A stretch of 64,000 nt of DNA from a virus. Position 1 is the first letter of the stretch. Every line of letters begins with the position of its first letter. The DNA is taken from positions 1-64,000 of IMG/VR virus record IMGVR_UViG_3300030202_002193. One strand, 5' to 3'. The notes beneath the pieces were generated by a model, which ran no database searches, had not been told where the DNA came from, and saw only the letters and a list, made by a program, of their open reading frames with translations. The position numbers were made by a program, and so were the translations under genes. Below are positions 26,580 to 59,408 of this stretch, one piece after another.

Positions 26580-26852
26580 CTACTTAAATTCTACCCAAAT
26601 AGTGTCTTGGCTAGTCTGTTGTATTTTATATTCTGGATGATTATTAATTTCATTAATAAAATCTTGAGGAGTAATTCCATGCGGATGTGCAGAAACCACA
26701 TTTGGTCTCCTATCTTTATTCTCGTCAAATCTAACCATGACGGCATTAGGTCGGCTTTGTTGTAGAACATATTTAACCAATTTAATAAAACTTCTAGGGC
26801 GCATCGGCCCCGCTTGCGGTAGTTCGTTTTTAATTATTTTTTTCCAATCCAT
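26580..26852 (-). CDS. W-x-x-I-L-K leader protein (MDWKKIIKN)
   Basis: Shared N-terminal leader; GAGTGA RBS. Confidence 0.7.
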   Translation of the reverse strand: MDWKKIIKNELPQAGPMRPRSFIKLVKYVLQQSRPNAVMVRFDENKDRRPNVVSAHPHGITPQDFINEINNHPEYKIQQTSQDTIWVEFK

Positions 26853-26857
26853 ATTAA

Positions 26858-27979
26858 TCACTCAATAATATACACAATATCCTTCTTACCATCTAGTATT
26901 TCCATAGCCTCTTTCTTCAAGATGTCATACTTTTCCTTAGTGGTAATGTTAGCCCCTGTTTCAGCAATAAGAATAGTTTGGTCATCATGTCGTAATATTT
27001 CTGCGGCGGCTAATTTTGTAGCGGCTTCGTGTATTGCAGAAGGAACTCTAGAATCTCCAGCAATGTATGAAACAATTACGGAGTTTTCTGTATGATAAGG
27101 ATAGTCTTTCAAGAAGAATAGCCTTCCTTCATTTCCAATTTTCCAAAAACTTCCTATTCTTTTCATGTCTTGCTTATCTGTAAATTGGTCAATAGTAATG
27201 GAATCGGCAACGCTTCCGGAAGTAACAGTAGCCGCTATAACACAATCAGAACCATCCTCTCCTTCTAAAAGAGATGAGATGTTAATTTTAGTTCCATCAT
27301 CGGGGTCGCTACTTGCATAAAAGAAATCTGAAACATTAAAGTTAGTAGCACCATCTTCAGTCAATTCCTTTCTGTTATCTGCCCCAGTAAAAGAAGCAGT
27401 TTTAGCAGGGTATTGTTCGTTAATTAGGGAAACTATTTCTCTAACAGTAGTCTTAGTTCCAAATTTTTTATTAAAATTAGAATCAGACAAAGAAGAACCT
27501 ACATTATTGCTGGCAGTTAAAGTAAATGTAGTAGACCCATCAGGTAATGTTAAGGTTATCGTGTCTAATTTAGCGTAGTCTAAAATCTGAATGCTTCCCG
27601 ATGCCGATGCTAATTCCTTATATCCGCTACCCTGCCAAACCTGTAAACTTACAATTTTTCTAACTTTCATATGTTGTAACTGAACGAACCCTACATATCC
27701 GCCATAGTAAGAATCCGCAGGGTTTCTACTAAAATTAAAATTATGGACTTCATGCTCATGTCTAATAGGACGATAAGAACGCTTAACCTTATCATCAATC
27801 ATTCCCTCTACCCGTTTAATTATAGAACCTACTTGTGTTTGCGTAGGATTAGTACCAGCACCAAAGGCCGGTATCTGTAGTAAGTCTGAAATCGCCCCCT
27901 TATCTGTATAAAATCCTTGTCCTATCGAATAGTCTGCGTTAATTGTAGTATAGTCGCTAGGGGAAAATACGGTTGGCAT
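26858..27979 (-). CDS. Head-tail adaptor-like protein with inserted domain
   Basis: IKRVEGMID...; VSYIAG...VPSAIHEAATKLAA pattern. Confidence 0.6.
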   Translation of the reverse strand: MPTVFSPSDYTTINADYSIGQGFYTDKGAISDLLQIPAFGAGTNPTQTQVGSIIKRVEGMIDDKVKRSYRPIRHEHEVHNFNFSRNPADSYYGGYVGFVQLQHMKVRKIVSLQVWQGSGYKELASASGSIQILDYAKLDTITLTLPDGSTTFTLTASNNVGSSLSDSNFNKKFGTKTTVREIVSLINEQYPAKTASFTGADNRKELTEDGATNFNVSDFFYASSDPDDGTKINISSLLEGEDGSDCVIAATVTSGSVADSITIDQFTDKQDMKRIGSFWKIGNEGRLFFLKDYPYHTENSVIVSYIAGDSRVPSAIHEAATKLAAAEILRHDDQTILIAETGANITTKEKYDILKKEAMEILDGKKDIVYIIE

Positions 27980-27980
27980 A

Positions 27981-29489
27981 TCAAGCACCTTCTTCTATTT
28001 CGTCTTTTACTGAATCGAACCTATCCAGTATTTCTTCTATATGGTCGGAAAGCCTTTCGTTAAAACGATATTCCCTATTCAAACTCTCCCTACTCTCCTT
28101 TAATTTAGTATATCTTTCTTCGATGTCTTTAGATATACTTTGTATTACTTCCATACTAATCCCTTCTGATTCTTCTGACGATAATTTATCTTCTAATTCG
28201 GATAGGGCTTCTTTTTGCTTTTGCTCATATTCCTTTTCAGTTTCGATTTCAGTTTGGGCTTCGTTCATTATCTTATTATATTCTTTAATGGCATCGGATA
28301 AGATTTTAGATTCACTATCACTTAATCCCCTGTCTGAAATTGCTTCCGAAGTTATTTCTGATTTTCCTTTGCCTTTAGTCCTTTGATAAGTAGGTTTAGA
28401 AAACGGGCTAATATCAAAAGTCCCTATTCTTACAGATTTAATCTTTACTTCATATTTGAAAGATTTAGTTTCTTCAAGGGGGTCAATTTTTTTAACCATT
28501 CCAGTAATATAGACTTCGTAAGTTTCATCCATAAGAGGGTCTGCCTTATTCATTTCTGCTAAATATTTTATTAATTCATCAGATACTCTACCTACAATAG
28601 AATCCATTTCTGATTCTATTATTTCTTTAATATCGTCTAATTTATCCTTTTTATTATCTTCAGTTATTTTACCAGTAGTTAATATTTGTTTAACTTTAGA
28701 TAGATTTAATTCATGCGTACCTCTTAATTTTGACAAAGATACTGATTCAGTACTCTTTAATATCCTTTTACCTGTACTTCTATAATTTACATTGGGGTAG
28801 ATTCTTTTTAGAAACTTTGTTCTTTCTTCAGTATTATTATATTCTGAAAAGTACAGTACGGATTTATCTTTACCGGTAGAGGTTATTTCTATAGTTGGCA
28901 AACCAGAAGTCTCTCCTATATTTATTTCAAAATATGGTTCAAAGTCAGGTTTTTTCATAAACATGCTAGGCAAGGAAGGCACATCTGCCCCAAAATCTCT
29001 AGTTTGAGGAATGTTTCTAAGTGAAGAAATATATTCCTGTGCCTGTTCGGTGTCTGCATAGTCTTCGCCTAGATTATAAGGACCAGTAAACTGTTCCGGT
29101 TCTTCTTCCGTAACCTTTCCAAATAAACTATATCCTATAATTTTTAATAAGTTATCAGATTCTCTCATATCCTCTAAAGTAAAATCTTTAACCTCATCAA
29201 ACACCCTACTTCTTCTTAGAGACCTATACATAATTGGTTCGGGCTTTCCTCTTTTAGCCAAATCTAAAATCTTCTCTTTTTCTATTCCTTCTAGAATCTT
29301 TAGGCCTTCTTCTACAAAAGCATCATTATCAAATTGTATAGAAGTATTGATGGCAGATTTTTCTGCAATGCCGGTTATTTCCCCATCTTTGAATCCAGTT
29401 CTTCCAACTATAGTATCTTTGATTTTTTCAGTAAAATCTGTTGGCCAATTTCTAATAGAGCCATCGGAATCAATTACTTTAGTCGGCAT
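27981..29489 (-). CDS. Hypothetical protein with C-terminal coiled coil
   Basis: 502 aa ORF. Confidence 0.75.
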   Translation of the reverse strand: MPTKVIDSDGSIRNWPTDFTEKIKDTIVGRTGFKDGEITGIAEKSAINTSIQFDNDAFVEEGLKILEGIEKEKILDLAKRGKPEPIMYRSLRRSRVFDEVKDFTLEDMRESDNLLKIIGYSLFGKVTEEEPEQFTGPYNLGEDYADTEQAQEYISSLRNIPQTRDFGADVPSLPSMFMKKPDFEPYFEINIGETSGLPTIEITSTGKDKSVLYFSEYNNTEERTKFLKRIYPNVNYRSTGKRILKSTESVSLSKLRGTHELNLSKVKQILTTGKITEDNKKDKLDDIKEIIESEMDSIVGRVSDELIKYLAEMNKADPLMDETYEVYITGMVKKIDPLEETKSFKYEVKIKSVRIGTFDISPFSKPTYQRTKGKGKSEITSEAISDRGLSDSESKILSDAIKEYNKIMNEAQTEIETEKEYEQKQKEALSELEDKLSSEESEGISMEVIQSISKDIEERYTKLKESRESLNREYRFNERLSDHIEEILDRFDSVKDEIEEGA

Positions 29490-29499
29490 TTAATTCAAC

Positions 29500-30153
29500 T
29501 CACATTAGCCACTTAGCCCAAGCCGCACCTTTCTGAATTGCGCCACCTAATCCTAATCCGGACTTTGGTGGTTCGTAACTCATCTGACCATTAGCATCTA
29601 ACCAATATGGCCGACCATACATATCTTGCCCATTAGGAGGAATCGGATAGCCCGAACCATTGTTCATAGCACCTTGCATTTGTTGGTATTGTTGAGTTTG
29701 TCCCGTTACTCCAGCAAGAGCCATACCTGCTGAAACCTGTTGTTGCCCACCGCCAAATCCTTGAGATTCTAAGAATTGAGACTTAGCCATCTTTCTCTGA
29801 TTAATTACTTCGGCATCAATAGCAGAATTCAATAGATTCATTATATCTAATTCTATGTTAGCGGCAGTAATTCCCTCAAATTCCCTTAAAGAATCAGGAT
29901 GGATTCTAATACTTTTAGTGGTATCGTCTTGAATAAACTGCAATTTAGTCAGCATTCTACTAACTACTCTTTCGGTAACATCTTCCATAAGTGTTTCTAA
30001 ACACTTCAAAAACTTATCTCCGTGGTATTGGAAAAACTCTTCCACATGGTTATCCTGTAAAGAAAGTAAATTATTTACATTCTTGAATTGTTGGTCGCTC
30101 TGTGCTTGTACTGCTCCTAATACTGCGCCGTTACTTGTTCCTAATATCCCCAT
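29500..30153 (-). CDS. Gln/Gly-rich protein with a C-terminal amphipathic tail
   Basis: 217 aa; ends GGAIQKGAAWAKWLM. Confidence 0.75.
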   Translation of the reverse strand: MGILGTSNGAVLGAVQAQSDQQFKNVNNLLSLQDNHVEEFFQYHGDKFLKCLETLMEDVTERVVSRMLTKLQFIQDDTTKSIRIHPDSLREFEGITAANIELDIMNLLNSAIDAEVINQRKMAKSQFLESQGFGGGQQQVSAGMALAGVTGQTQQYQQMQGAMNNGSGYPIPPNGQDMYGRPYWLDANGQMSYEPPKSGLGLGGAIQKGAAWAKWLM

Positions 30154-30154
30154 A

Positions 30155-30796: not shown

Positions 30797-30811
30797 TTTT
30801 CATTCCTCAGT

Positions 30812-31216
30812 TTACATATAGTCCGGTATATCCCAAGACCCATAAGAAGTATTCTTATCCCACATCTGTAGCATTTCTCCACTTTGGGCATCATCGGGAA
30901 CAAAATTATATCCTTGATTATCTAAAGCATATGCGATTAAATGATAGAGATTTTCGCCATATCCTCTTCTCATAAATCTAGAGTCTGTTCTAACATCTTT
31001 TGCTTGAAAGGTATCGTCATCTATCTTTTCTGCATAAGCCCTTGTTATTTGCCTACCTTCTTTATCAATAATATTAGCATCCAAAGATTCATCGTGAATA
31101 GAAACTGACATTTTTAATTTTTCATCACTTTTGTTGTCTAGAAACATGGCAGTTGTTTCATCTCCCCTAATAACTATATTAGAAATGCGGTTTTGTTTTA
31201 ATATTTTTTGCCACAT
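30812..31216 (-). CDS. GNAT-fold acetyltransferase-like protein with leader MWQKILKQ
   Basis: VRTDSRFMRRGYGENLY motif A; QS..MW. Confidence 0.7.
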   Translation of the reverse strand: MWQKILKQNRISNIVIRGDETTAMFLDNKSDEKLKMSVSIHDESLDANIIDKEGRQITRAYAEKIDDDTFQAKDVRTDSRFMRRGYGENLYHLIAYALDNQGYNFVPDDAQSGEMLQMWDKNTSYGSWDIPDYM

Positions 31217-31234
31217 AGTAATCAATAATCCTCT

Positions 31235-31603
31235 TTAATATCTTTCATCTAGTTCAAACTTACCTTCTAATTTGTTTCGGGTTCCCTCGGCAGTATTGGA
31301 TTGTCTAGTATCGGGAACATAGTTTTTGGAAGGAGATTCTTCTTCTTTTAGTTTAATAACATAATACATGGTTGGGGAAGCAAGACTTTGAAATACTCCA
31401 TCTTCCATTTTAACTACCTTTCCCTCTTTAGCACTACCAACAACAGTATAATTTATTTCTTTGGCCATTTTTTTTATCCAAGCAAAAGCATCATCCCTGT
31501 CTGTAAAGTCCTTTGTTTCAGGTTCATAGTCTCCATCACTGTCTTGTAATTTGAGATATAACACTATTTCGTTATCCTTTTGTTTTAATATTTTTTGCCA
31601 CAT
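31235..31603 (-). CDS. Leader protein (MWQKILKQ)
   Basis: First ~25 nt identical to those of the 31216 gene. Confidence 0.75.
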   Translation of the reverse strand: MWQKILKQKDNEIVLYLKLQDSDGDYEPETKDFTDRDDAFAWIKKMAKEINYTVVGSAKEGKVVKMEDGVFQSLASPTMYYVIKLKEEESPSKNYVPDTRQSNTAEGTRNKLEGKFELDERY

Positions 31604-31613
31604 TTTAATTCCT

Positions 31614-31973
31614 CTAATTTTCTTCTATTATTGAATATCTATCCTCTTGTTCTTTTCGCATATATGTAATTGTCTTTACATGAATATTTCTGCTATATCT
31701 TTTAATTACTAAATATGCGTTTTTCTTTTTCTGCCTAACTAATTTTACAATGATTGTAGTTTTTTTCGGTAGTTGTCCTCGATTAAGTTTTCTTTCTATA
31801 GCGTTTTTGATTCTTTTCATTTTAATATCGGGGAATCTTAATTGTAAATTGTCACTAAAATGTTTGGTTAAAAAAATCTTTACTTTCTCTCCATTATTTA
31901 ATTTTAAAAAATATTGTTCGGCAGTTTCTTTGATACTGTCGTATGGGTTTACCTTTAGAATCATTTTCCACAT
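31614..31973 (-). CDS. Leader protein (MWKMILKV), basic, possible RelE/DUF4258-like fold
   Basis: FLTKHF...R motif; C-terminal IHVKTIT. Confidence 0.6.
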   Translation of the reverse strand: MWKMILKVNPYDSIKETAEQYFLKLNNGEKVKIFLTKHFSDNLQLRFPDIKMKRIKNAIERKLNRGQLPKKTTIIVKLVRQKKKNAYLVIKRYSRNIHVKTITYMRKEQEDRYSIIEEN

Positions 31974-31978
31974 AGTAA

Positions 31979-32641
31979 TCAATAATCCTTCAGCATCGTC
32001 ATTACTCCACGATACACCATTTCCGGTTGAGATTTAGCCGACACAATATATTTGAATGTTGGGATGCCCTTATCATTAAGCCGTTGCATCCCATATTTGA
32101 AAGGTCCGAATATAGGATGGTCTTGTATGTCTCCGTCATATTTGTGTTTTTCTCCCCAAATATCGTATTTATTAGCCCATATAGCAACTGCTATAGGGTA
32201 GTCTTGTTCTTTTTTCTTTTTTCTATTGGGCCAAGTATTAGCACAAATGGCATCTACTAAAAATTTCCAAGCGAGTTGGTGGTCTAGATTAGCCCCGCTA
32301 TCTAAATGTCTATGGTCAATCATAAAAATAATGTAATTCACCTTTCTTTTCTTCATATCAGAAATCCATTCTTTCCAATAGAATGATTCTCCCCCGACAT
32401 CTGCTGATTTTAGAGTATGGATTTCTCCTTCAATTTTTATTGTTTTTCTAGTTCCTTTATGAAGGCCGACTGTTCTTTTTTTAATTTCAGGAACTTCTCC
32501 TCTAGTTCTAAGTTGATGATTAAGAGTTGTCTTTCCTACCATAGTTGCCCCATAAATTCCAAATTGTATGGCGTGTATTCTTTTGTAAAATGCTATCGCC
32601 GCTTCTGTTATTACAATAGCGAAACCTGCTAGTACTGACAC
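31979..32641 (-). CDS. Arf/Sar-like small GTPase with N-terminal hydrophobic helix
   Basis: G1 GATMVGKTT, G2 RTVG, G3 DVGGE, G4 NKYD, G5 SAK. Confidence 0.88.
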   Translation of the reverse strand: MSVLAGFAIVITEAAIAFYKRIHAIQFGIYGATMVGKTTLNHQLRTRGEVPEIKKRTVGLHKGTRKTIKIEGEIHTLKSADVGGESFYWKEWISDMKKRKVNYIIFMIDHRHLDSGANLDHQLAWKFLVDAICANTWPNRKKKKEQDYPIAVAIWANKYDIWGEKHKYDGDIQDHPIFGPFKYGMQRLNDKGIPTFKYIVSAKSQPEMVYRGVMTMLKDY

Positions 32642-44582: not shown

Positions 44583-44608
44583 GTCTACACCCTATCCTTA
44601 CGACCCGC

Positions 44609-46335: not shown

Positions 46336-46344
46336 AATATCACC

Positions 46345-49508: not shown

Positions 49509-49521
49509 TTAATCCTCTCCT

Positions 49522-49893
49522 TTAACATGCCCCACAAGTAGGTCGGCACTTTCTTTTTTTACCTTTAGAAGCATCTTCTCTTCCACAAGGTTTTGGCCCA
49601 CTTTTATTACCGCAGGTTCCGCAAGCAATCCAACCGCCTTGAGTTTTTTCTCCTTTCTTTTGCTTTCCGCCTCTTCTATTAAACCAAGCATGAAGACCGC
49701 CCTTTCTTTCTTTCTTAGTATGGGGGTCTGCCTTTTTGACTTTACCTTGTCGGCATCTAACAATAAATCCGGATTTGTATGCGGAACTTTTCATCCCGTA
49801 TTTTTCATCGGCTAGTTTAGCACATCTATCCTTTTTCTCGCCTTTGCTATTGTGAGTAGCGGTAGCCTTTACTTTAAGAATATCTTGCCACAT
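49522..49893 (-). CDS. Leader protein (MWQDILKV), basic and Cys-containing
   Basis: SAYKSG, GGLHAWF, CGR...KCRP. Confidence 0.7.
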   Translation of the reverse strand: MWQDILKVKATATHNSKGEKKDRCAKLADEKYGMKSSAYKSGFIVRCRQGKVKKADPHTKKERKGGLHAWFNRRGGKQKKGEKTQGGWIACGTCGNKSGPKPCGREDASKGKKRKCRPTCGAC

Positions 49894-49898: not shown

Positions 49899-52199
49899 TC
49901 ACCTAAATTGTGCCTTCACTTGATATACAATTTCTTCAGATACTCCTAGAGATTTAGCAATATCAGAAAACGAATTAACTTCAGTAACTATTTTATCTAC
50001 TTCAGAATGTGACAAATCAACATGGAACTCCTTATACATCTTAGTAATAACTTCTTCAGAATGTTCGATAGTCAAGGGTCTAAAAGCATAAACGGCTTCC
50101 AAGCCCTTTATTTCTCTAATAATATCATGGGCTTTTAATAAAGATTTGAGAATAACTGGTAGATTTTCTGCCCTTCTCAATAAATCCTTTAATTTGCTAA
50201 CTTCGTTCTTCATCCCTGCTCTTTCAATAAGACCTCTATGTTTCATTAAATAGGCCGGTAAAATAAATAGGGGAAAGGGTTTTCCTGAAGCATAGTCTGT
50301 ACGATATTGTTTTTCTCTTTCACTAATTAACTTCTTATTGAACTTTCTATCTCCAATTTCTTGTCCCATTTCGTCATATAAATATTTAATTATAGCCGCC
50401 ATATGGTTATCATTTTCTTCTTGTAAGTCAAATAAAGCAGTAAGAGCAGTAGCGGCATCTTCTCCCTTTTGAGTTAATTCCATATCTAGCCCACCTTCTC
50501 CGCTAATTACTGCGTTAAGGAACTTGTAGATAGCGGTAATATGGGACTTTTTCACTATGAATCTATTATTTAAGATATTAGAATACGCAGTACCCGATAA
50601 TGTCTGAACGCCTAAATTGGATGCACCTGCTGAAATTCTAAAAGCCCCTACTGATTTAACGAAATCTACTTCTGCTATGGGTAATTTACCACTATAACTA
50701 GGGGAGAGATAATAGGCATCAATAGCCTCTAATAACTCCTTAAATGCTTCTCTAGCCTTTTTCATTTCGCCCTTATGCCCTGCTTGCATAGGGGCTTCCG
50801 AAGGTAGGCCTTCTTCTACTGAAAAGTTTCGTCTAACGCTTTTACTAGGTAGCATCGGAGGGAACTCGAATAATAAATTTCCTACTGTTTCTAAAAATTC
50901 TAATATGTTAGAAGTATTGTTCTCACCATCTACGGTGCTTCCTTTAGGAAGATGCTCTATTATATTGTGAGGTAAATAGAATTCAGAAATATCCGATGTA
51001 ATAGTTTCTTTCATTTCCTCAATATCTTTCTGTATTCTAGGAGACATTAGAACTCCTAAATCCGAATATTGGGCATTCGCATTTTCAATAGACCCTATAA
51101 TGTAGTCATGGATTTCTTCAAATCCTTTCTTAGTAATGGCTATTGTCTTTTTAGATAAATCAGATTTAGGGGAATTGAAGTAATAAGATAGTAAGGGGTC
51201 TACTTCCTTTCCTTCTCCTTCTAAAAATCTTAGGAGTTCATCGTCTTGAGAACTATTTGTCAATGTGGGGTCTATCATAGAAAAATCTTGGCCATCCGTC
51301 TTAGCGGCAGTTCGTAACTCCATTTGCATTTGGGAATTAACATCCCCTGCTATTTCTCCAGTCTCTTTCTTTTCTTCTTCTAATATCTCTTTATGTAAAT
51401 TGTAGGCGGTTTCTAAACTAACTATATACGAATATGCCCTACCTAATGGTACTGAAGTACTTACTGTAACTGGGTCAAATCTATGCACATAACTCAAATC
51501 TTTGTCCTTGAATTCCAAAAGACTAGATAATAAGTCATCCCATTTAGCATCTACCTCTTTGCCTTCAAACATTTGTTCTAACTGTTCCATCATTGGTTTC
51601 ATTAATATATTTTCTAAAGCATTTTTAAGTTTTTTATATTTACCAGCAACATCTCCCCAATATTTGTAGATGACATCTCTATTCTGTACGGAACTTAGTG
51701 GTAGGCCCCCAAGGTAACTATCTATTTTAATAGCCTTAGTAGATTTTTTTCCAGTAATAGCATAAGCCTTGGTTTCATCTATTGCATCTAATAAAACATC
51801 CACATTATGTTGTATTATAATATCAGAAGGGGTGACAGGGGGATTATTTTTTAGGGCCACCTGTATAACCTGTAGATTTTTTTCTAAAGCAGTTATGTCC
51901 TTTTCAGGATTGTTGGTAGTAGAAAATAATCTAATGTTTGTTGGTAGTTTTCCCTTTAAGGCGGTGGTTTTAGTAATAGTTTTGTTACTCTTCGTTTTGA
52001 TTCTTACGCCCTTCAGAGCCTTTTCGAACATTTGAAATGGACTATCAGAGCGACTAATTTTATCTTTTAGTTCTTGGATTTTAGCATCTGCCCCTTCTCC
52101 AAACTCTTCCCTCATGTCAGCAAAGATTTCTGCCTGTTCTGTTTTTCTTTGGCTTTTAGGGAGTCTAGATAATCTATCTGCAATTTCGTCAATGTTCAT
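49899..52199 (-). CDS. Large hypothetical protein, probable internal head protein
   Basis: 766 aa; VILKSLLKAH; C-terminal HTH-like FSDIAKSLGVS. Confidence 0.75.
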   Translation of the reverse strand: MNIDEIADRLSRLPKSQRKTEQAEIFADMREEFGEGADAKIQELKDKISRSDSPFQMFEKALKGVRIKTKSNKTITKTTALKGKLPTNIRLFSTTNNPEKDITALEKNLQVIQVALKNNPPVTPSDIIIQHNVDVLLDAIDETKAYAITGKKSTKAIKIDSYLGGLPLSSVQNRDVIYKYWGDVAGKYKKLKNALENILMKPMMEQLEQMFEGKEVDAKWDDLLSSLLEFKDKDLSYVHRFDPVTVSTSVPLGRAYSYIVSLETAYNLHKEILEEEKKETGEIAGDVNSQMQMELRTAAKTDGQDFSMIDPTLTNSSQDDELLRFLEGEGKEVDPLLSYYFNSPKSDLSKKTIAITKKGFEEIHDYIIGSIENANAQYSDLGVLMSPRIQKDIEEMKETITSDISEFYLPHNIIEHLPKGSTVDGENNTSNILEFLETVGNLLFEFPPMLPSKSVRRNFSVEEGLPSEAPMQAGHKGEMKKAREAFKELLEAIDAYYLSPSYSGKLPIAEVDFVKSVGAFRISAGASNLGVQTLSGTAYSNILNNRFIVKKSHITAIYKFLNAVISGEGGLDMELTQKGEDAATALTALFDLQEENDNHMAAIIKYLYDEMGQEIGDRKFNKKLISEREKQYRTDYASGKPFPLFILPAYLMKHRGLIERAGMKNEVSKLKDLLRRAENLPVILKSLLKAHDIIREIKGLEAVYAFRPLTIEHSEEVITKMYKEFHVDLSHSEVDKIVTEVNSFSDIAKSLGVSEEIVYQVKAQFR

Positions 52200-54253
52200 G
52201 CTTGGACCTCCGTAACAATGTTCTTGTCTAGTAGTTTATTTAATAACTTCTTCGGAAGTTGGCCTTTACCGTCACCGACTCCCTTAGAGTTTATTATCTT
52301 GCGAAGATTCTCTTCAAAGAAATATATTAGGGCATTTCTATAGGCAAGTATTCTTCCCTGTATAGTTGATTCTAATTCATCAATTAGTTTTCTTTTATCC
52401 TTCGCCTTATCTATCCTCTCATAGAACCCTAAAACAGAATCACTTCCAGTACTTCCTAGTAAAGAATCTAACTTAGCAAAAAATGGAATTAGTTTTTTAG
52501 GACTTAGTGAAGATAATGTAAGGGAGCCTCCTAGGGGTTCTCTAGCCGTTTTTACTAGAGGATAAGAAAGCATTAGTTGTCTAAACCCTGTCTCTGATAA
52601 TAAAGAAGCAACAGATGAAGAAATCTCAAGACGAGTCAATTCTTTTTCCGGTAAATTACCTTTTAAGTTACTAAGTAAGTCTTTAATTTCAGACGGCACA
52701 AACTCTTCTATTTCTCCATCCTCTTCTCCGACTATTTTGAATCTTCTAAGTGAGCCTATCATGACTTCTTCGAAATCTATAGTAGTTTTATCCTCTAAAA
52801 TATCTCCCACTAATAATTCCTTAACTCCTATATTTTCTATTGCCTCGTCTAATACTCTTTTCATTTTAGGAGATACAGTAGTAGACATCTCTTCCGCATT
52901 CGCTTCACTTATATCTTCTATATCTACTTGTTTCATGAACCATCTCTTGAAAGGTTCCGGTTGTTCAGGAACTTCCTCAGAATCCAAATCAATTTCTATT
53001 CCGAATAAAGGAGTGGAAACTTTTCCAGATTCTTCATTGAATACTTTCATAGCATCTTCTAATAGTAAAGGCCTTAATTTACCAGCATCAATAATCTCCA
53101 ACTTTTTAGTTTGTGTCAATAAAGTATCGAACCAATTCGGTCCATCAATGGCAGTAAGTAATAGGCTCAAATAGGGGTTTGTTCGTAAACTCCCCCCTGC
53201 TTTTGTAGGGAATACTAAGTCTTGTACCAAAGAAGAAGATAGGGTAATTTCTTCTCCTCTTTCTGTAATTTTCATATCTACTCCCTTTGGAATAAATATA
53301 GAAGACTTGACACCTTTGGTTTTACTAACAGTTTCTATAAATTCTGTAAGCATTCGGTTATCAAATTGATTTACTTCATAGAATTTAGCATCAGGTATGG
53401 TTAATTTTCTACTAACTCCGGCAGATTCTATTGTTGGTACATATGATTTAATTTCTACTAAAATAGGGTTCAGAATCTCTTTGAATTGTCTACCATCTGT
53501 TATTGCTGAAAGTCTTCTAAATTCCTCGGCATAGGTTCTGAGAGAAGTAGGTTTCATCCTACCCATACTGCCTTCGCCGGTAAAATCTATATTTCTGTCT
53601 TCATCTAAGAAGAAAGAGTTCCAATTTTTCATCCATTCTCCTACTGTTAGATTAGGATAGTGGATTACCCAAGACCGTTCCTTAATTCCTAGCCAAAGTA
53701 CTTTTCCTTGGATAATTTTAGCAAATTTTTCTAAAAGTTTCTTAGAAGGGTTTCCAGCCTTAAAATATAATATGCTACCCTTGTCTATTTTCTGCAAATC
53801 TCTCTGCAATTGCCGTAAATCTTCATCTCGCATTATTTTAGGGTATTTTTGCGCCAATTTCAAAAATTCGTCGATTTTATCGGTATTTCCGCCCTCTTTT
53901 ATCTCTTGAGCGAGAGTATTCAGTTTTACTCTAGGACTATCCGCACTTTGTCTCTTTTTTGTGCCATATCTTTCTACAAGTAGGTCCATTTTTTGCTTCA
54001 TTGGCGCAATATCCATGTTTTCCCTGAATCTTGGAGTAAATTCTCTAACAAATCCGTCCTTATCTTTAGAATATTTATCCAATGCTTCGATTAATTTGTT
54101 AAAATCTCTTCTTTTTTGGTTTTCTGTAGGAGAATCTCGCATATCATCAAGAATTGGCAGTTGAGTTTCTAAAATATCTAAAGAAAATGCGGGAGAAAGC
54201 ATCCCTTGGACTAAATCTATGGCAGTTTGCCTCTTCAATAACTCGGTCCACAT
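52196..54253 (-). CDS. Large leader protein (MWTELLKR)
   Basis: 685 aa; shared leader. Confidence 0.75.
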   Translation of the reverse strand: MWTELLKRQTAIDLVQGMLSPAFSLDILETQLPILDDMRDSPTENQKRRDFNKLIEALDKYSKDKDGFVREFTPRFRENMDIAPMKQKMDLLVERYGTKKRQSADSPRVKLNTLAQEIKEGGNTDKIDEFLKLAQKYPKIMRDEDLRQLQRDLQKIDKGSILYFKAGNPSKKLLEKFAKIIQGKVLWLGIKERSWVIHYPNLTVGEWMKNWNSFFLDEDRNIDFTGEGSMGRMKPTSLRTYAEEFRRLSAITDGRQFKEILNPILVEIKSYVPTIESAGVSRKLTIPDAKFYEVNQFDNRMLTEFIETVSKTKGVKSSIFIPKGVDMKITERGEEITLSSSLVQDLVFPTKAGGSLRTNPYLSLLLTAIDGPNWFDTLLTQTKKLEIIDAGKLRPLLLEDAMKVFNEESGKVSTPLFGIEIDLDSEEVPEQPEPFKRWFMKQVDIEDISEANAEEMSTTVSPKMKRVLDEAIENIGVKELLVGDILEDKTTIDFEEVMIGSLRRFKIVGEEDGEIEEFVPSEIKDLLSNLKGNLPEKELTRLEISSSVASLLSETGFRQLMLSYPLVKTAREPLGGSLTLSSLSPKKLIPFFAKLDSLLGSTGSDSVLGFYERIDKAKDKRKLIDELESTIQGRILAYRNALIYFFEENLRKIINSKGVGDGKGQLPKKLLNKLLDKNIVTEVQA

Positions 54254-54259
54254 GAAAAC

Positions 54260-54562
54260 TCACTTAGAATCCCTACTTCCACGCCTTCTAATAATTATTT
54301 TTGCCGACAATTGGCCCATTTTTGCCCTAATTGCCTTTAATTTTTCTGAAATAGTGTTAATTTTTAGAGAAATCTGCTCATCCTCTTCAGAAGTCTTTGC
54401 ATTTTTTCTCGCTATACTTAGTTTGGAAAGTTCGCCCTCTATTTCTCGCATTTTCTTTACCATACTATCCATTTTTTTCTGCAATTCCGAGTCATAATCT
54501 GTAACTTGAAAGCGTTTCCTCTGCTCTCTACGGATTCTTTTCAGTATATCTTCCCAACTCAT
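54260..54562 (-). CDS. Cassette leader protein (MSWEDILKR), basic coiled coil
   Basis: Starts within the 22-bp repeat. Confidence 0.75.
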   Translation of the reverse strand: MSWEDILKRIRREQRKRFQVTDYDSELQKKMDSMVKKMREIEGELSKLSIARKNAKTSEEDEQISLKINTISEKLKAIRAKMGQLSAKIIIRRRGSRDSK

Positions 54563-54573
54563 TGTAATTCCTC

Positions 54574-54819
54574 CTAGATATTATATTCTAACTCTCTTGT
54601 AGAAATATGTATTTCTTCTAATCTCTTTAGCCTATCTTGTAAATCAGCAAATTCTTCTTGCGCCCTTTCCATATCTTTTTCTTCAAGAATAAGAGTTTCG
54701 ATATACTTTAGATGTTCATATAAGTCTGCAAATCTATCAACGCCTAGTTCCATAATCACTTTGATGTAATACCTAACATCGTCATAGATGTCTTTCTTTA
54801 GAAGATTTTTCCAACTCAT
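54574..54819 (-). CDS. Cassette leader protein (MSWKNLLKK)
   Basis: Bounded by 22-bp repeats. Confidence 0.75.
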   Translation of the reverse strand: MSWKNLLKKDIYDDVRYYIKVIMELGVDRFADLYEHLKYIETLILEEKDMERAQEEFADLQDRLKRLEEIHISTRELEYNI

Positions 54820-54830
54820 TGTAATTCCTC

Positions 54831-55154
54831 CTAGGCATAATCCTCTAATATGGTATCAACATCTTCAGAATAATTTTCTGCAACTATATCCCAATCTACA
54901 TCATTAATAGAATCTGTTGAACCATCATAATCTTCCCTTTCTAATTCTTCCATAAAACCTTCCATGTGCATCATAACATTAGGAAGCCAATTTGCCAACT
55001 TATCCATGAGTTCTTCTTTTTCATATCCCGACATAACTAGAGATTCAATATATGCTAATACCTTTCTATAAGTCTCTTCTTCATTCATTATCCAAAGTTC
55101 AGCAGAACGAGTAGCAGTATCTATTTTTTTTCTAATGATATTTTTCCAACTCAT
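54831..55154 (-). CDS. Cassette leader protein (MSWKNIIRK), acidic
   Basis: Bounded by 22-bp repeats; LWIMNEE...VDWDIVAE. Confidence 0.75.
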   Translation of the reverse strand: MSWKNIIRKKIDTATRSAELWIMNEEETYRKVLAYIESLVMSGYEKEELMDKLANWLPNVMMHMEGFMEELEREDYDGSTDSINDVDWDIVAENYSEDVDTILEDYA

Positions 55155-55170
55155 TGTAATTCCTCCTGCA

Positions 55171-55395
55171 TCAAATTTCAACTACACTATCGTAAGCACT
55201 TTCAAATCCCTCATCATCTAAGGCAAGGCAATTCCTACAAGAATAGCCCTCAGAGGGTTCATTGGGTCTAAAATTATCATCACTGAATCTTCTAAAATCA
55301 GATACATAATACTCTGCCCTGCCTGTGCAATTAGGAGAACGCCTTATGTCACACCTTAACTTTTTATCTTCTTTCAAAATTTTCTTCCAACTCAT
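55171..55395 (-). CDS. Cassette leader protein (MSWKKILKE), Zn-finger-like
   Basis: C...C...CRNC; bounded by 22-bp repeats. Confidence 0.75.
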   Translation of the reverse strand: MSWKKILKEDKKLRCDIRRSPNCTGRAEYYVSDFRRFSDDNFRPNEPSEGYSCRNCLALDDEGFESAYDSVVEI

Positions 55396-56051
55396 TGTAA
55401 TTCCTCCTGCATTTGTTTCTTTACATCAAGCCAAACTTCGGGATGGTTTTGTGCCAATACCTTTTGTACGACTTGCATTTGGTGAACGATAATTGTATCT
55501 TGTCTACGGTGAACCAACTTGCCCTTGAACTCCATAATATATTTCAAACTTTCACGAACTTCTCTAGCCAACTTAACCAAAGCATCTAGTTCTTTGTGAC
55601 TTAAATCATCTTGACCAAATAACTCATCCACCTTAGCATCCAATCTTTGAACATTCAGACTTAACATCTCAATCTCATTGACTTCTTTCTTTGCTATGAT
55701 ATTAGCCGCAGACTTCTGCACTAGTGGAGCCAAGTGGTTTTTCATGTGCCTTTGTACTTGTGTCTTAGAAATGCTTAGAGTTTCAGCAATGGCTTCTGAA
55801 GTAACTTCTCCGGAACTCAATGCTTTTTCATAGTGACTTCTCATAGGGTCGGTACAAAAACCACATCTAGGATTGCTACTGTTTTGATAATCGCCCATGT
55901 GATTTCTTTGGTGTTGGGCGGCAGTTCCGCTTCTCCAACCTTCTCTTTTATCTAAGTCATCACAAGATATTGACATAGAATCTATTTCAGATTCCAATTC
56001 ATCTCTTGCCTCATGTTGGCAAAACTTACAACGCTTGCGGGTTACTGTCAT
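55392..56051 (-). CDS. Tandem Zn-finger/HTH plus coiled-coil protein, candidate terminase small subunit
   Basis: CKFC...HQRNH and CGFC...HTH...HMKNH repeats; helical oligomerisation-like tail; upstream of terL. Confidence 0.55.
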   Translation of the reverse strand: MTVTRKRCKFCQHEARDELESEIDSMSISCDDLDKREGWRSGTAAQHQRNHMGDYQNSSNPRCGFCTDPMRSHYEKALSSGEVTSEAIAETLSISKTQVQRHMKNHLAPLVQKSAANIIAKKEVNEIEMLSLNVQRLDAKVDELFGQDDLSHKELDALVKLAREVRESLKYIMEFKGKLVHRRQDTIIVHQMQVVQKVLAQNHPEVWLDVKKQMQEELQ

Positions 56052-56055
56052 AATA

Positions 56056-57381
56056 TCACGCCTGTTCAATTAAATGAATTGTATATTTAGCCACCTGTTC
56101 TAGTTGAGGTTCAGTTAAAAGGTTAATATCTTCTGTTCTATTAGGATGAACCCCACCTCTTGTTGTAGGCCTATCATATTTCATAACAAGTTTTTCTATT
56201 TCTCTACTTATACTTCCTATTTTAGCCCCTCGGCTAAATTGGTGTAGTCTAGATAATTTTGCAGACAACTCTATACTTTTACCCCTATTAACCAAATTTT
56301 GCATATAGGGTCGTAGTTGTTTTGCAATTGCTATAGGTAAATCATATTCTACTAACATTGCCAGCCATTGAGGATAATTCTCTGTACGCTTTACAATATC
56401 TAGCCAAGATTTAGCAACCGGTACTCCTTCCTTTCTAGGTCTTTTATCTACGACCTTACCATGAATGTAGAATCCACCGACCTTCTTCTTAGTGGAAGCG
56501 AGATACGCCCTTTCTACAATGGCAGGTGAAACCTTAACAGTAAATTCCTCTACATCTCCAGTCACTTCTTCTTCAGAAAATCCACTCAATCTTCTAACTA
56601 TTGCTTCTTCTGCTTCACCAGTCACGCCAAACTTTTGACTTGCCAATTTTCCAGCAATTGCCTTAGCATTAATTACTCCCTCTTTAACTAAAGCCGGAGT
56701 TAATTGGCTTTCTAAGAATTGCTTAACCTGAGACAACTTATACAATTCTTTAGGATTAGAAACTCTAGTAATTTCAAATGTAATATCTGCCTCTTCTAAC
56801 TCTTTAAGTGCATCTTCTAAAATATATTTCAATCCTTTTGGACTCTCTTTAGAATATACTACTTGATGAGGAGGAGGAGTAGGGGGGTTGTTTACATCAT
56901 AACTATACCAAGACTTAGGAACTGGGGTGTCGCCCTTAAACTTCTTACTATATTTTACAAACTCCGCAGTTTTCCAATGCCCGTAAACTTTTCTCTTACC
57001 TATGTTTTTTCCTGATTTGTCATATATGTTGATGTGATATGGTATCATGGCAGGGTCAGCCTTAGTACCTTTAGCCGCATCAATAAATTTCAAATATGCT
57101 TTAAGATAATCTATTTCTTTTGTTCCTATGAAATCATCATAGTCCATAATTTCCATAAGTCTTGGCAAATGGTCTCGATGGCCTCTAGAAGCACCTTCGA
57201 TTGTTTCCATTCCAGTTCGTCTTGTGACAGTGTTGGAGGACTTAATTCCGTGTCGTAGAATAAAATCTACTCCTTCTAATTCCTTCCATTCCTGAAACTC
57301 TTTGAAAAAATTAGTAGACTTCAATTCCTGTTGAGCAGTATTGCCATTCTTAGTCTTAGTCTTTTTCTTCATCTTTGGCAT
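56056..57381 (-). CDS. Hypothetical protein with an internal leader copy (AKSWLDIVKR)
   Basis: 441 aa ORF. Confidence 0.75.
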   Translation of the reverse strand: MPKMKKKTKTKNGNTAQQELKSTNFFKEFQEWKELEGVDFILRHGIKSSNTVTRRTGMETIEGASRGHRDHLPRLMEIMDYDDFIGTKEIDYLKAYLKFIDAAKGTKADPAMIPYHINIYDKSGKNIGKRKVYGHWKTAEFVKYSKKFKGDTPVPKSWYSYDVNNPPTPPPHQVVYSKESPKGLKYILEDALKELEEADITFEITRVSNPKELYKLSQVKQFLESQLTPALVKEGVINAKAIAGKLASQKFGVTGEAEEAIVRRLSGFSEEEVTGDVEEFTVKVSPAIVERAYLASTKKKVGGFYIHGKVVDKRPRKEGVPVAKSWLDIVKRTENYPQWLAMLVEYDLPIAIAKQLRPYMQNLVNRGKSIELSAKLSRLHQFSRGAKIGSISREIEKLVMKYDRPTTRGGVHPNRTEDINLLTEPQLEQVAKYTIHLIEQA

Positions 57382-57721
57382 TTTTATTACCTCCTATTCT
57401 GCCTTCACTAAAAAGAGGTTTATGAGCCGCACTACTTGTAGTTACCGTTCCAGCAACCTTTTCCATTTCTCCATTCAAAGAATCTAAAATTGTAGGGAGT
57501 ACTGATTGTAGGTCGTAGACATTCGTATTAAAATCGCCATAATTTACCCTATATGCCGAACCGCCCCTTCTCTTAACTGTGATTTTTCCCCTATCAGAAT
57601 CCAAAGTAAAATTGTCCCCTGCCCTACTGCTACCACCTGAAATCTCCCCACCGATTATATTTTGAATGTTTTGTAGAAACATCCTAGGGGTCATCATCTT
57701 TAATACATTTTTCCAAGTCAT
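57356..57721 (-). CDS. Leader protein (MTWKNVLKM)
   Basis: Shared leader. Confidence 0.75.
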   Translation of the reverse strand: MTWKNVLKMMTPRMFLQNIQNIIGGEISGGSSRAGDNFTLDSDRGKITVKRRGGSAYRVNYGDFNTNVYDLQSVLPTILDSLNGEMEKVAGTVTTSSAAHKPLFSEGRIGGNKNAKDEEKD

Positions 57722-57978
57722 TTCTTTCCCCTCTCTAATCGGTCTTGTAATTGAATAAGTTCCGGCATAATTTCCATATATTGTTTCAACATGTCTTCAT
57801 CGTTGCCTAAATATTTTTCAAGAAAAATCTGTTTCATAACTGGGTCTCTTTTGATTTGATAATACACGGCTCTACTGTTCCTACCAGAATTTTTTATCAT
57901 ATTGTCTAATTGAACAATTTTGGTTCTAATTTTCTTAGTGGAATATTTTTTTTCTTTGAGGATAGTTTCCCACCTCAT
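57718..57978 (-). CDS. Leader protein (MRWETILKE)
   Basis: AGGAGG RBS; shared leader. Confidence 0.75.
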   Translation of the reverse strand: MRWETILKEKKYSTKKIRTKIVQLDNMIKNSGRNSRAVYYQIKRDPVMKQIFLEKYLGNDEDMLKQYMEIMPELIQLQDRLERGKK

Positions 57979-58142: not shown

Positions 58143-58144
58143 AT

Positions 58145-58402
58145 TTAATCCCTCGATGTAAATGCCCTTCCGCTTCCCATTCTAGGAGGGACTTTTTTAT
58201 TTGCATTCCTCGTCCTTTCAATTAAGGGGTGAGTTTTTAATTCCTTTTTAGGAACAGGAGGAGTAGCGTCTGCATGTTCTTCTCTCTGATGCCCAACCAA
58301 TTCTTTTAGAGAACTGTATTTCTTACCACAAATAGAACAAACTTCTTTTTTGTGGGCATCAGATGGAATATATCCTATTTTAACAATATCTTTCCATGAC
58401 AT
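58145..58402 (-). CDS. Leader protein (MSWKDIVKI) with C2H2 zinc finger
   Basis: CSICGKKYSSLKELVGHQREEH. Confidence 0.8.
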   Translation of the reverse strand: MSWKDIVKIGYIPSDAHKKEVCSICGKKYSSLKELVGHQREEHADATPPVPKKELKTHPLIERTRNANKKVPPRMGSGRAFTSRD

Positions 58403-58407
58403 ATTAA

Positions 58408-58827
58408 TCACCAACTAATATCTACGCTCTTGATATAGAATTCACCATCTTTTCGCCCTATCTCAATATCAGCCTCCGGCATGATATACGAACCCATACT
58501 CACTTTATCCAATTTTTCCACTTCTATATTTTCTGAAGTTTTCAATTCTAAATCTAAAGCCAATTCTTCTACTTCTTCTCCAATATCTTCAATAGAAGAA
58601 ATACTAACAACAACAGATTGCACACTAGGTTGATTCAATTCCAAACCATCTCCATCAACTTCAATACTCATACTCCAATTAACTGTTACACTATACCAAT
58701 CAATATCAATATCAATATCAGAACCACTTCCTCTATAAGTAACCATAGTATTGTGATTTCTATTAGGTTTTACAGTAGTTTCAAAGGTATAACTCTCTAA
58801 AGCACCCTTCAGTATATCTTTCCACAT
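58408..58827 (-). CDS. Leader protein (MWKDILKG), acidic, beta-rich
   Basis: GGTGA RBS within the repeat unit. Confidence 0.75.
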   Translation of the reverse strand: MWKDILKGALESYTFETTVKPNRNHNTMVTYRGSGSDIDIDIDWYSVTVNWSMSIEVDGDGLELNQPSVQSVVVSISSIEDIGEEVEELALDLELKTSENIEVEKLDKVSMGSYIMPEADIEIGRKDGEFYIKSVDISW

Positions 58828-58856
58828 AATATCACCAAAATTTTCCCGTATTTTTT

Positions 58857-59111
58857 TCAAGTCCTCGAAAGGACATCTGCCTCTCCAGCAGATTCAGAAA
58901 TATCCTTTATCATTTCTTCTGCAATATCACTTATTGCTAAAAGAACCGCATCCTCCGCACTAACGGAATGCTCAAATTGCCTTTCCATCATCTTTGCATC
59001 TTCACCCGCTTTATCTGATAAATCGCTCATAAGATTTCTTATTTCGCTTTCTAATGCTTGTCTAAGAGTACTAGTCATAGTGTAGCGTTTTTTAATCGTA
59101 TCTTTCCACAT
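58857..59111 (-). CDS. Leader protein (MWKDTIKK)
   Basis: Start refined to the leader. Confidence 0.75.
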   Translation of the reverse strand: MWKDTIKKRYTMTSTLRQALESEIRNLMSDLSDKAGEDAKMMERQFEHSVSAEDAVLLAISDIAEEMIKDISESAGEADVLSRT

Positions 59112-59133
59112 AAAAATTCCCCGAAATTTTTTT

Positions 59134-59346
59134 TCAGTAGCCTCGTATATTCTGCAAAATATCAGATAATTTATCAATACAATAGGCCAGCATTTTTGGC
59201 TTTTCAAGCGCATGTCTATCTTCAGCCTTATCACTGATTTCATTACACAAATCTTGTATTTCCTCAACCATACTTTCAACGGTGTCCGTTGGGGCATAGT
59301 TTCTATATTCGTCATCTTCTTTCTTTATCTCGTTTTTCCAACTCAT
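59134..59346 (-). CDS. Leader protein (MSWKNEIKK)
   Basis: Start refined; GGTGA RBS. Confidence 0.75.
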   Translation of the reverse strand: MSWKNEIKKEDDEYRNYAPTDTVESMVEEIQDLCNEISDKAEDRHALEKPKMLAYCIDKLSDILQNIRGY

Positions 59347-59351
59347 TTTTC

Positions 59352-59408
59352 TCACCAAAATTTTCCGTAATTTTTTTTCAATTCTTCTTTTAGTATATCT
59401 TTCCACAT
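59352..59408 (-). CDS. 18-aa leader-only mini-ORF (MWKDILKEELKKNYGKFW)
   Basis: GGAGA RBS; first 17 nt identical to those of the 58827 gene. Confidence 0.5.
   Translation of the reverse strand: MWKDILKEELKKNYGKFW

Follow-up and report, generated by a model that had tools for sequence, protein, structure and literature searches.

A start peptide shared by unrelated late proteins of a magrovirus: a candidate tag for loading cargo into the virus head

Results

Tagged genes on the late strand

The window analyzed here is a 64-kb stretch of a complete, 84,538-bp magrovirus genome. About 20 unrelated late genes on its minus strand begin with the peptide M-x(0-2)-W-x-x-[ILV]-[ILV]-K (consensus M-S-W-K-D-I-L-K), referred to below as the tag. 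An earlier note on this DNA listed 20 such starts, and every one of them proved to be a minus-strand ATG followed by the motif or a near match: 16 of the 20 fit the strict motif, start 55154 has R in place of the final K, and starts 59111 (W-K-D-T-I-K) and 59346 (W-K-N-E-I-K) are near matches. The three W-D-[YW]-Y variants that it placed at 40106, 40375 and 40946 were likewise found. The tagged genes and the variants are:

26580-26852, minus: tagged gene, 90 aa, M-D-W-K-K-I-I-K, with a weak, sub-threshold GH-E/HNH Pfam hint
30812-31973, minus: tagged tandem trio, 30812-31216 (134 aa), 31235-31603 (122 aa) and 31614-31973 (119 aa)
39915-40106, 40112-40375 and 40608-40946, minus: three small genes with the stretched variant M-x-W-D-[YW]-Y...I-K
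48393-49893, minus: block of four tagged genes, consisting of the next four entries
48393-48746, minus: 117 aa, pI 11.3
48743-49150, minus: 135 aa, Cys/His-rich
49143-49508, minus: 121 aa, weak EF-hand match
49522-49893, minus: 123 aa, basic, Cys-rich, weak DUF5872 match
52196-54253, minus: longest tagged protein, 685 aa, M-W-T-E-L-L-K, a weak match by its PSSM score of 9.5
54260-55395, minus: array of four tagged genes, 100, 81, 107 and 74 aa
57356-59408, minus: head of the late strand, with tagged genes at 57356-57721, 57718-57978, 58145-58402 (weak C2H2), 58408-58827, 58857-59111 and 59134-59346
59352-59408, minus: ORF of 18 codons consisting of the tag only

A regular expression slightly looser than the strict motif matched 18 ORFs of at least 40 aa in the window, all on the minus strand, and returned no tag match among ORFs of this length in the other five frames; shuffling the window (n = 100) gave a mean of 0.06 tag ORFs and a maximum of 1. 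Tagged ORFs are confined to 26.8-59.4 kb of the genome. Beyond this interval, a scan of all 84,538 bp found no tag other than in one 24-aa ORF and no tag-bearing gene in the replication module, as the earlier note had claimed from the window. Searches of all the tagged window proteins against Pfam and PHROGs gave sub-threshold matches only. The EF-hand and C2H2 assignments made previously fall under the Pfam thresholds, and the GNAT that had been placed among the tagged genes of the window was not found by Pfam; a GNAT does lie directly upstream of an internal variant tag in one relative. Homologues of the 685-aa protein were found in close relatives only.

The tag across related loci

The comparison covered 80 related IMG/VR loci, in which ORFs of at least 40 aa were counted and cargo bodies were grouped by BLAST. 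There were 336 tag matches on the structural strand of these loci and none on the non-structural strand, so the restriction to the late strand holds in the relatives. The tag heads ~350 genes in ~90 unrelated BLAST families, which agrees with the earlier proposal of a modular tag on unrelated bodies. In the window, the tag Ile is encoded by ATT, ATA and ATC, the Leu by all six of its codons and the Lys by AAA and AAG, and in the relatives the tag is encoded by 281 distinct 24-nt strings; the synonymous variation mentioned in the earlier note is therefore real. Because all six Leu codons and 281 different coding strings are used, selection acts on the tag at the peptide level. The family of the variant gene that starts at 40946 includes members with the canonical tag in related loci.

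The cargo families span 40 to 771 aa and pI 4 to 11, and include pentapeptide-repeat, Zn-binding and very basic proteins. The pI exceeds 9 in 45 of the 90 families and is below 7 in 32 of the 90, a mixed distribution that is not diagnostic. To call the cargo 'effectors' is a guess, because most of it lacks a recognizable function and very basic families account for half of the total. An AlphaFold2 model of the Cys/His-rich cargo family (23 sequences) had a mean pLDDT of 43, unusable for the conformation of the tag. The magrovirus literature searched makes no mention of the tag.

Internal and C-terminal copies

The earlier note described the motif as an N-terminal leader. Strictly this does not hold, as the motif is also present between modules and at C-termini. 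Two proteins of the window with internal tags had been overlooked:

47799-48392, minus: 197-aa protein with the internal tag W-Q-R-V-L-K at 48195-48212 (residues 61-66)
56056-57381, minus: 441-aa protein with the internal tag W-L-D-I-V-K at 56389-56406 (residues 326-331)

In the 197-aa protein, a conserved 60-aa N-terminal module precedes the internal tag, and the C-terminal modules vary among relatives; in one homologue (locus L001) the ORF terminates directly after the tag Lys. Across the 80 related loci, ~40 ORFs contain the motif without its Met at least 50 aa inside the ORF, against six matches in 260,000 residues of the opposite strand. Three ORFs terminate right after such a Met-less tag, L021:1782 and L065:3716 contain two internal copies each, and fusions of the form A-Y-A-S-G-Y-V-K-K-x-W-x-x-I-L-K occur among the relatives. 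In the ORFs with internal copies, the module swaps fall exactly behind the tag Lys.

Tag-like ends and Lys sites in the head module

The tagged genes cluster around untagged head and packaging genes (42942-47799), 1-8 kb upstream of the portal gene. The relevant features of the head module are:

34404-35747, minus: major capsid protein, HK97 fold
35652-35669, minus: candidate maturation site I-L-K|Q-A-G, capsid residues 27-32
35761-36936, minus: prohead protease-scaffold fusion, with Peptidase_S78 at residues 21-175 and an acidic/coiled, scaffold-like C-terminal part
35764-35799, minus: C-terminal motif M-S-W-A-D-L-N-R-L of the protease-scaffold
40372-40611, minus: small core protein, 79 aa, amid the W-D-[YW]-Y variant genes
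42942-44582, minus: portal, untagged
44734-46335, minus: 533-aa protein with an HNH match, untagged
46345-47799, minus: large terminase, untagged

The I-L-K-type sites that had been reported in the capsid protein and the protease-scaffold were both found. Capsid Lys29 is at least 90% conserved among 54 capsid proteins with identity down to 30%, and lies within residues 18-56, a stretch of pLDDT below 50 between the N-terminal helix and the HK97 fold (the capsid model also matches encapsulin shells). The protease-scaffold, which matches S78_2 as well, has I-L-K-type sites at residues 12-16, 164-169 and 359-363, the second of which, F-D-I-L-K-Q, is at the end of the S78 domain, the junction of protease and scaffold. 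The hydrophobic-hydrophobic-Lys ending of the tag matches both the capsid Lys29 site and this junction site. The tripeptide [IL]-L-K is common in this Lys-rich proteome, and the protease-scaffold is conserved over its whole length, so the conservation of its sites carries little weight.

Both the scaffold and the 79-aa protein carry C-terminal look-alikes of the tag, likewise overlooked in the earlier note. In most relatives the protease-scaffold ends in M-[DE]-W-[SAN]-D-I-H-K-M, a look-alike of the tag; the corresponding end in the window, M-S-W-A-D-L-N-R-L, is a weak look-alike, with a tag PSSM score of only 2.7. The small core protein, encoded between portal and protease, is present in 80 of the 80 related loci and ends in the same 10-mer as the scaffold, and the two ends change together in the subgroup to which the window belongs. 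Tag logos are alike across three subgroups with differing scaffold ends. In a second magrovirus group, scaffold and small protein are again paired, with a different end motif (W-x-A-A-E), and the tag there, M-T-A-F-D-x-A-W-x-L-L-K, is unlike the scaffold end. The tag is absent from loci around more distant capsid relatives (L082-L086), one of which, L083, has a scaffold that ends in M-T-W-R-E-V; the head module of the related halovirus HCTV-1 has no comparable tag.

Discussion

A proposed route into the head

We favor, with confidence a little above even, the view that the tag, a short linear motif, serves to dock cargo to the procapsid and that the S78 protease cleaves it behind its Lys. We infer the steps of docking, cleavage, head retention and injection from sequence and from analogy with known systems. 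Docking by scaffold mimicry is suggested because the W-x-[DE]-I part of the tag resembles the C-terminal end of the virus's own protease-scaffold; by imitating that end, tagged proteins would dock at the scaffold's docking place, inside the assembling procapsid. The hydrophobic-hydrophobic-Lys ending would be the recognition site of the Peptidase_S78 prohead protease, which would cut after the tag Lys and so free the cargo within the head; the same cut is presumed for the scaffold and for the N-terminal stretch of the capsid protein. Once freed, the cargo, made up of basic proteins that bind DNA or of enzymes, would remain beside the DNA and may accompany it into the host. Recombination at the start that encodes the tag may give rise to new cargo genes.

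A connection with the head machinery is supported indirectly, because two head-module proteins end in a tag look-alike, because the tag ending matches the near-invariant capsid Lys and protease/scaffold junction sites, and because tags join modules in polyprotein-like ORFs. The clustering of tagged genes upstream of the portal and the precedent of the T4 internal proteins (PMC3012670) also count for head cargo. Against it count the commonness of [IL]-L-K, the whole-length conservation of the scaffold, the weak scaffold look-alike in the window, the second-group scaffold end that is unlike the tag, and the absence of the tag from HCTV-1 and the distant relatives, as well as the ~20 cargo species that each head would hold, far above the handful in T4.

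Alternative readings

The foremost alternative, which we consider unlikely, is that the tag is a processing site only, at which a viral protease cuts precursor or polyprotein-like late proteins or removes short propeptides, with no head targeting, and that what it releases functions in the cytoplasm or as normal components of the virion. Internal tags that join modules, some ORFs with two such copies, an ending the same as the conserved capsid Lys site, and a second-group tag unlike its scaffold end would all fit this reading. However, trimming seven or eight N-terminal residues from ~350 small proteins would serve no evident purpose without targeting, and HK97-type proteases work within the procapsid. 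The Trp that stands, without variation, five residues ahead of the proposed cut argues for binding and not for cutting alone, as does its match to two C-terminal motifs in which the Leu is missing (I-H-K).

Somewhat less probable again is binding to another partner, such as the portal, the terminase, a chaperone or a host factor, through which the tag would govern the stability, timing or location of late proteins. The tag differs among magrovirus groups whereas the N-terminal helix of the capsid protein is conserved between them, and the cargo mixes acidic with basic families, two points in favor of this reading. Nevertheless, outside the cargo the look-alike occurs solely on the scaffold and on the small protein whose gene lies between those of the portal and the protease, and replication-module genes are untagged.

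It is highly improbable that the shared start is a by-product of recombination, a junction of DNA cassettes (ribosome-binding site, ATG and Trp codon) with a functionless peptide. Stretches of 21-22 nt from the ribosome-binding site to TGG are indeed identical in two arrays: the upstream DNA of the genes at 31216 and 31973 is identical through the Trp codon, and the same 22 nt, ribosome-binding site through ATG AGT TGG, lead into all four genes of the array at 54260-55395. The tag-only ORF at 59352-59408 could be read in the same way. The nucleotide identity ends at the Trp codon, however, beyond which I-L-K is encoded by many synonymous codons, and the motif is also conserved internally, with neither start codon nor ribosome-binding site; this DNA-level reading was rejected, as it is largely refuted by the synonymous variation. 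The least credible reading, a single diverged paralogous family of which only the N-terminus is still recognizable, would account for those tagged genes that are paralogues (family 0 has 91 members, two window genes among them) but was rejected in view of ~90 BLAST families of such disparate length and pI and with unrelated domains, for example pentapeptide repeats and Zn-binding folds.

Implications

Returning to scaffold-mimicking head cargo, a broader claim can be made only tentatively, and we hold it to be rather doubtful: that magroviruses in general possess a delivery system in which a tagged protein is docked by scaffold mimicry, freed after the Lys and injected with the DNA. If this were true, each virus would carry ~20 rapidly exchangeable host-takeover or anti-defense proteins, taken from over 90 available families, by means of a tag that serves at the N-terminus, between modules or at the C-terminus. 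Magroviruses are among the most abundant viruses of surface-ocean archaea. If the favored reading is right, about one gene in six of these uncultured viruses would encode head cargo, explaining a large share of their 'hypothetical' genes. The capsid-targeting principle of T4 would reach archaeal viruses with HK97-type proteases, and the tag may have originated by copying of the scaffold's own capsid-binding end. It would also allow candidate injected proteins to be picked out of metagenomes by a simple rule on their sequence, and is a candidate for loading proteins into HK97-fold shells.

Comparison with known systems

Many proteins are packaged in the heads of the giant phages SPN3US and phiKZ and, as Dar proteins, of P1; the prohead protease processes several of them, and some counter host defense (PMC7411985, PMC9024508). 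They carry long propeptides, or rely on the order of assembly, and, unlike the magrovirus proteins, share no common 8-residue tag.

The tag also resembles the cargo-loading peptides of encapsulins in being a short hydrophobic/basic peptide on unrelated cargo of a virus with an HK97-fold shell. Encapsulin peptides are short and combine a few hydrophobic anchor residues with a basic one; they attach to the inside of an HK97-fold shell, and are mostly C-terminal and uncleaved. Encapsulins themselves are cellular compartments with no portal, terminase, DNA or protease. Encapsulin-type loading was rejected for the magrovirus, which has a portal, a terminase and a complete 84.5-kb genome.

With HK97 the magrovirus shares an S78 protease gene directly upstream of an HK97-fold capsid gene, a portal and a terminase, and a conserved Lys in a flexible stretch before the fold. 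Duda, Oh and Hendrix reportedly described in 2013 that the HK97 S78 protease co-assembles via a C-terminal targeting part and cleaves the capsid protein behind a Lys; the magrovirus protease protein likewise has, in its C-terminal end, a candidate capsid-binding element. In HK97 the 102-residue delta domain of the capsid protein itself serves as scaffold, whereas in the magrovirus the scaffold is fused to the protease and its end appears to be copied onto many other proteins. We know of no tagged cargo set in HK97.

A close parallel is the capsid targeting sequence (CTS) of T4, the cut site of which is L/I-x-E. The tag M-S-W-K-D-I-L-K has no evident likeness to this sequence. The magrovirus further differs in its archaeal host, in a protease of the S78/HK97 type (Peptidase_S78, S78_2) rather than the gp21 type, in the size of the tagged set (~20 genes per genome and ~90 families over 80 loci, where T4 has a handful), and in a motif that is also internal and C-terminal. 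The T4 internal proteins are diverse and have only the CTS in common (PMC3012670), which is removed from IPI-III and Alt by the prohead protease gp21 (PMC3012670; PMC9958956). In both systems a short N-terminal peptide is the one feature common to otherwise diverse proteins with rapid turnover, and the magrovirus tag would, as proposed here, likewise direct loading into the prohead and be clipped by the head protease.

Genome context and structural strand

The genome from which the window derives is complete (84,538 bp, with a 155-bp terminal repeat), and its structural genes occupy the minus strand from ~59.4 kb down to 11.1 kb, with the tail genes further down this strand, beyond the head genes:

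46345-47799, minus, large terminase
42942-44582, minus, portal
35761-36936, minus, Peptidase_S78 prohead protease fused to a scaffold-like part (protease-scaffold)
34404-35747, minus, major capsid protein

An IMG/VR portal search returned 327 relatives, from which 80 loci (74-91% identity; 1.37 Mb in total) were kept. Haloarchaeal tailed viruses are the nearest named source of capsid relatives, at ~24% identity, and both the relatives and the gene content are consistent with the magroviruses that PMC5434244 describes from Marine Group II archaea. The head module also encodes an ATP-dependent DNA ligase domain, at residues 256-439 of an 837-aa protein (36977-39490, minus) whose gene separates the small variant-tag genes from the protease; the protein's ~250 N-terminal and ~400 C-terminal residues have no assigned function, and the halovirus HCTV-1 has very large unassigned proteins at the equivalent position, one with a zeta-toxin domain. 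The large terminase and portal genes flank a 533-aa ORF (44734-46335, minus) with an HNH-endonuclease match (PHROG 5046, residues 285-400), and the tail region contains a 2336-aa ORF (13283-20293, minus).

The tag in the window

The earlier note described a leader, W-x-x-I-L-K, heading unrelated late proteins. Every start that it listed is an ATG with the motif directly after it. Using M-x(0-2)-W-x-x-[ILVTM]-[ILVM]-[KR], 18 ORFs of at least 40 aa match, all on the minus strand at 26.8-59.4 kb, whereas 100 shuffles of the window average 0.06 such ORFs and never give more than 1. The plus-strand replication module is tag-free, as had been claimed, and so is the remainder of the genome. Some members required amendment: the tag at 59408 is present, but its ORF is 18 codons long and consists of the tag alone; 59111 and 59346 are near matches only; the tag at 55154 ends in Arg; and that of the 685-aa protein is a weak version. 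The proposed EF-hand and C2H2 matches exist but fall below threshold, and Pfam finds no GNAT domain among the window's tagged genes.

In the early cassette region, the small genes at 60094 and 61985 (minus) begin M-S-W-R without the I-L-K part; either chance or degeneration of a tag may account for this. An A-rich element, about AAATTACGGGAAAATTTTGGTGA, occurs in four degenerate copies at the head of the late strand (58830-59440, minus), one preceding each of the tags at 58827, 59111, 59346 and 59408; the first unit encodes the tag alone, in 18 codons.

The tag in relatives and its putative cargo

The restriction to the late strand extends to the 80 loci, where, counting ORFs of at least 40 aa, the structural strand has 336 that begin with a tag and the opposite strand has none. 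The tags follow the consensus M-[STN]-W-[KQE]-[DEN]-I-L-K; beyond the Lys nothing is conserved, and the genes are concentrated 1-8 kb upstream of the portal. Once the tag is removed, the 355 tagged proteins of the window and loci fall into ~90 BLAST families (40-771 aa), half of them with pI >9. Recognisable cargo includes a conserved Cys/His-rich family and, in one relative, a GNAT acetyltransferase followed by an internal tag variant. A tagged 252-aa protein (L057:1666-2421, plus, in a related locus) contains pentapeptide repeats (Pfam E = 1.7e-10); pentapeptide-repeat proteins in bacteria are known DNA mimics, which makes this protein a candidate anti-restriction cargo. When one cargo protein (49522-49893) was searched against 5.8 billion protein clusters, its relatives were exclusively marine and nearly all tagged, with two body modules shuffled and the tag at the junctions. 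The AlphaFold model of one cargo family was unusable. The tag was not found in HCTV-1 or more distant relatives.

Internal and C-terminal copies

A PSSM made from the relatives' tags and run on the window located two internal copies:

residues 61-66 of the 197-aa protein just upstream of the terminase, W-Q-R-V-L-K
residues 326-331 of a 441-aa protein, W-L-D-I-V-K

The 197-aa protein consists of a conserved 60-residue N-terminal module, the motif, and C-terminal parts that differ among relatives; in its counterpart in locus L001 a stop codon immediately follows the motif Lys. The motif was also counted by position across the loci.

Table. Motif positions in the 80 loci, with control
N-terminal, ATG start: 322
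N-terminal, GTG or TTG start: 30
At least 50 residues inside the ORF, without Met: about 40 (including 3 that are a conserved capsid-protein segment)
Ambiguous: 37
C-terminal: 3
Control, opposite-strand ORFs (260,000 residues): 6 matches

Many ambiguous cases are clear fusions (...A-Y-A-S-G-Y-V-K-K-x-W-x-x-I-L-K...), and some ORFs have two internal copies (L021:1782, 629 aa, residues 181 and 365; L065:3716). N-terminal use of the leader thus stands, but exclusively N-terminal use does not. The internal and C-terminal positions point to a short linear motif read by another factor, and do not fit explanations that require a free N-terminus or start codon.

Links to the head machinery

The C-terminus of the protease-scaffold reads ...M-[DE]-W-[SAN]-D-I-H-K-M-x-G-G in most relatives, and its Met, Trp, Asp, Ile and Lys coincide with those of the tag consensus. 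The scaffold shares its C-terminal 10-mer with a small core protein, encoded at 40372-40611 in the window and present between the portal and protease in 80/80 loci. Both ends differ together in the window's subgroup, where the scaffold ends M-S-W-A-D-L-N-R-L and the small protein M-S-F-D-D-M-A-K-I; the window's scaffold end scores poorly on the tag PSSM, and tag logos show no correspondence to the subgroup differences in scaffold ends. Binding to coat protein is a common role of scaffold ends, established for P22 and 80alpha; by this reasoning the look-alike suggests a shared docking place for scaffold and tagged proteins. A distant relative without cargo tags (L083:7392-8162, plus) encodes, upstream of its capsid gene, a 256-aa protein ending ...K-M-T-W-R-E-V-E-D-Y-V; a scaffold end of the form M-x-W-x-E-[IV] may therefore predate the cargo tag.

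The tag of a second magrovirus group, represented by records G001 and G002, is M-T-A-F-D-x-A-W-x-L-L-K. Here the scaffold and the equivalent small protein share a W-x-A-A-E end, unlike the motif of the window's group, and this pair parallels the M-D-W-S-D-I-H-K pair of that group; the scaffold end does not resemble the tag.

G001:C1:56288, minus, W-x-A-A-E small protein between portal and protease
G002:C1:62070, minus, W-x-A-A-E small protein between portal and protease
G001:C1:~50150, W-x-A-A-E scaffold end
G002:C1:~56160, W-x-A-A-E scaffold end

The I-L-K reported in the N-terminus of the capsid protein is present at residues 27-29. Among relatives [IL]-L-K-[QAT]-[AV]-G is fixed, the preceding stretch varies in length and sequence, and an alignment of 54 capsid proteins, with identities reaching down to 30%, puts the conservation of Lys29 at 90% or more; distant capsid proteins have K-[AST]-D-[AD]-P at this site. 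The AlphaFold2 model (mean pLDDT 74) has the HK97 fold, with a helix at 8-16 and a low-confidence stretch (18-56) containing I-L-K, and in this predicted structure the layout is as expected for a maturation cleavage site. The capsid site of the second group is D-L-L-K/A-D-S-P, which the tag ending matches. Within the protease-scaffold, an invariant F-D-I-L-K-Q closes the S78 domain, adjoining a variable linker, and E-T-I-L-K-A lies ~30 residues ahead of the scaffold end. Two points limit what these sites can say: the tripeptide [IL]-L-K is frequent in this proteome, and the protease-scaffold is conserved over its whole length.

Proposed mechanism and alternatives

We propose that cargo would be docked inside the procapsid by a tag imitating the scaffold end, that the S78 protease would cut after the tag Lys, freeing N-terminally tagged cargo and separating fused modules, and that cut cargo would be retained in the head, perhaps to be delivered with the DNA. 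The tag is probably read by the head-assembly machinery; the docking, cleavage and retention scheme as a whole is somewhat favoured, cleavage after Lys taken singly may equally well occur or not, and injection of cargo into the host is a tentative suggestion. With the capsid-site match on one side and the scaffold look-alike on the other, a processing site with no targeting role is unlikely; docking to another partner, considered beside the same look-alike, is improbable.

The tag could also be a by-product of recombination. In two arrays (54562-55417 and 31216-31995, minus) 21-22 nt are repeated exactly, running from the ribosome-binding site up to and including ATG (AGT) TGG, but in both the nucleotide identity ends at the Trp codon, and recombination leaves the conservation of the motif unexplained, making this origin very improbable. 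The shared nucleotides look like the trace of recent gene insertion, suggesting recombination at the tag start as the route by which new cargo genes enter. Synonymous variation, named beforehand as the test of nucleotide-only conservation, was found: TTA, TTG, CTA, CTC, CTT and CTG are all used at the Leu position in the window, and the relatives encode the tag by 281 distinct 24-nt strings (Ile: ATT 105, ATA 91, ATC 22; Lys: AAA 185, AAG 84). The tag is a peptide signal, not a DNA signal, and almost certainly a modular motif acting at the peptide level. Descent of the tagged proteins, with their many BLAST families, from a single paralogous family can practically be dismissed.

Comparison with known systems

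The N-terminal motif is not mentioned in the magrovirus literature searched, a limited set including PMC5434244 and PMC11706807. T4 internal proteins are a diverse set with only a capsid targeting sequence in common (PMC3012670). The magrovirus tag would work in a like way, but the T4 protease is of the gp21 type rather than S78, and there is no evident sequence likeness to the T4 capsid targeting sequence; the magrovirus system is outside that family. Its logic is similar to that of encapsulin cargo-loading peptides, and its components to those of HK97 protease targeting. New relative to these systems are the archaeal virus setting, the very large and fast-changing cargo set, the use of one motif at N-terminal, internal and C-terminal positions and, apparently, an 8-residue tag derived from the scaffold end.
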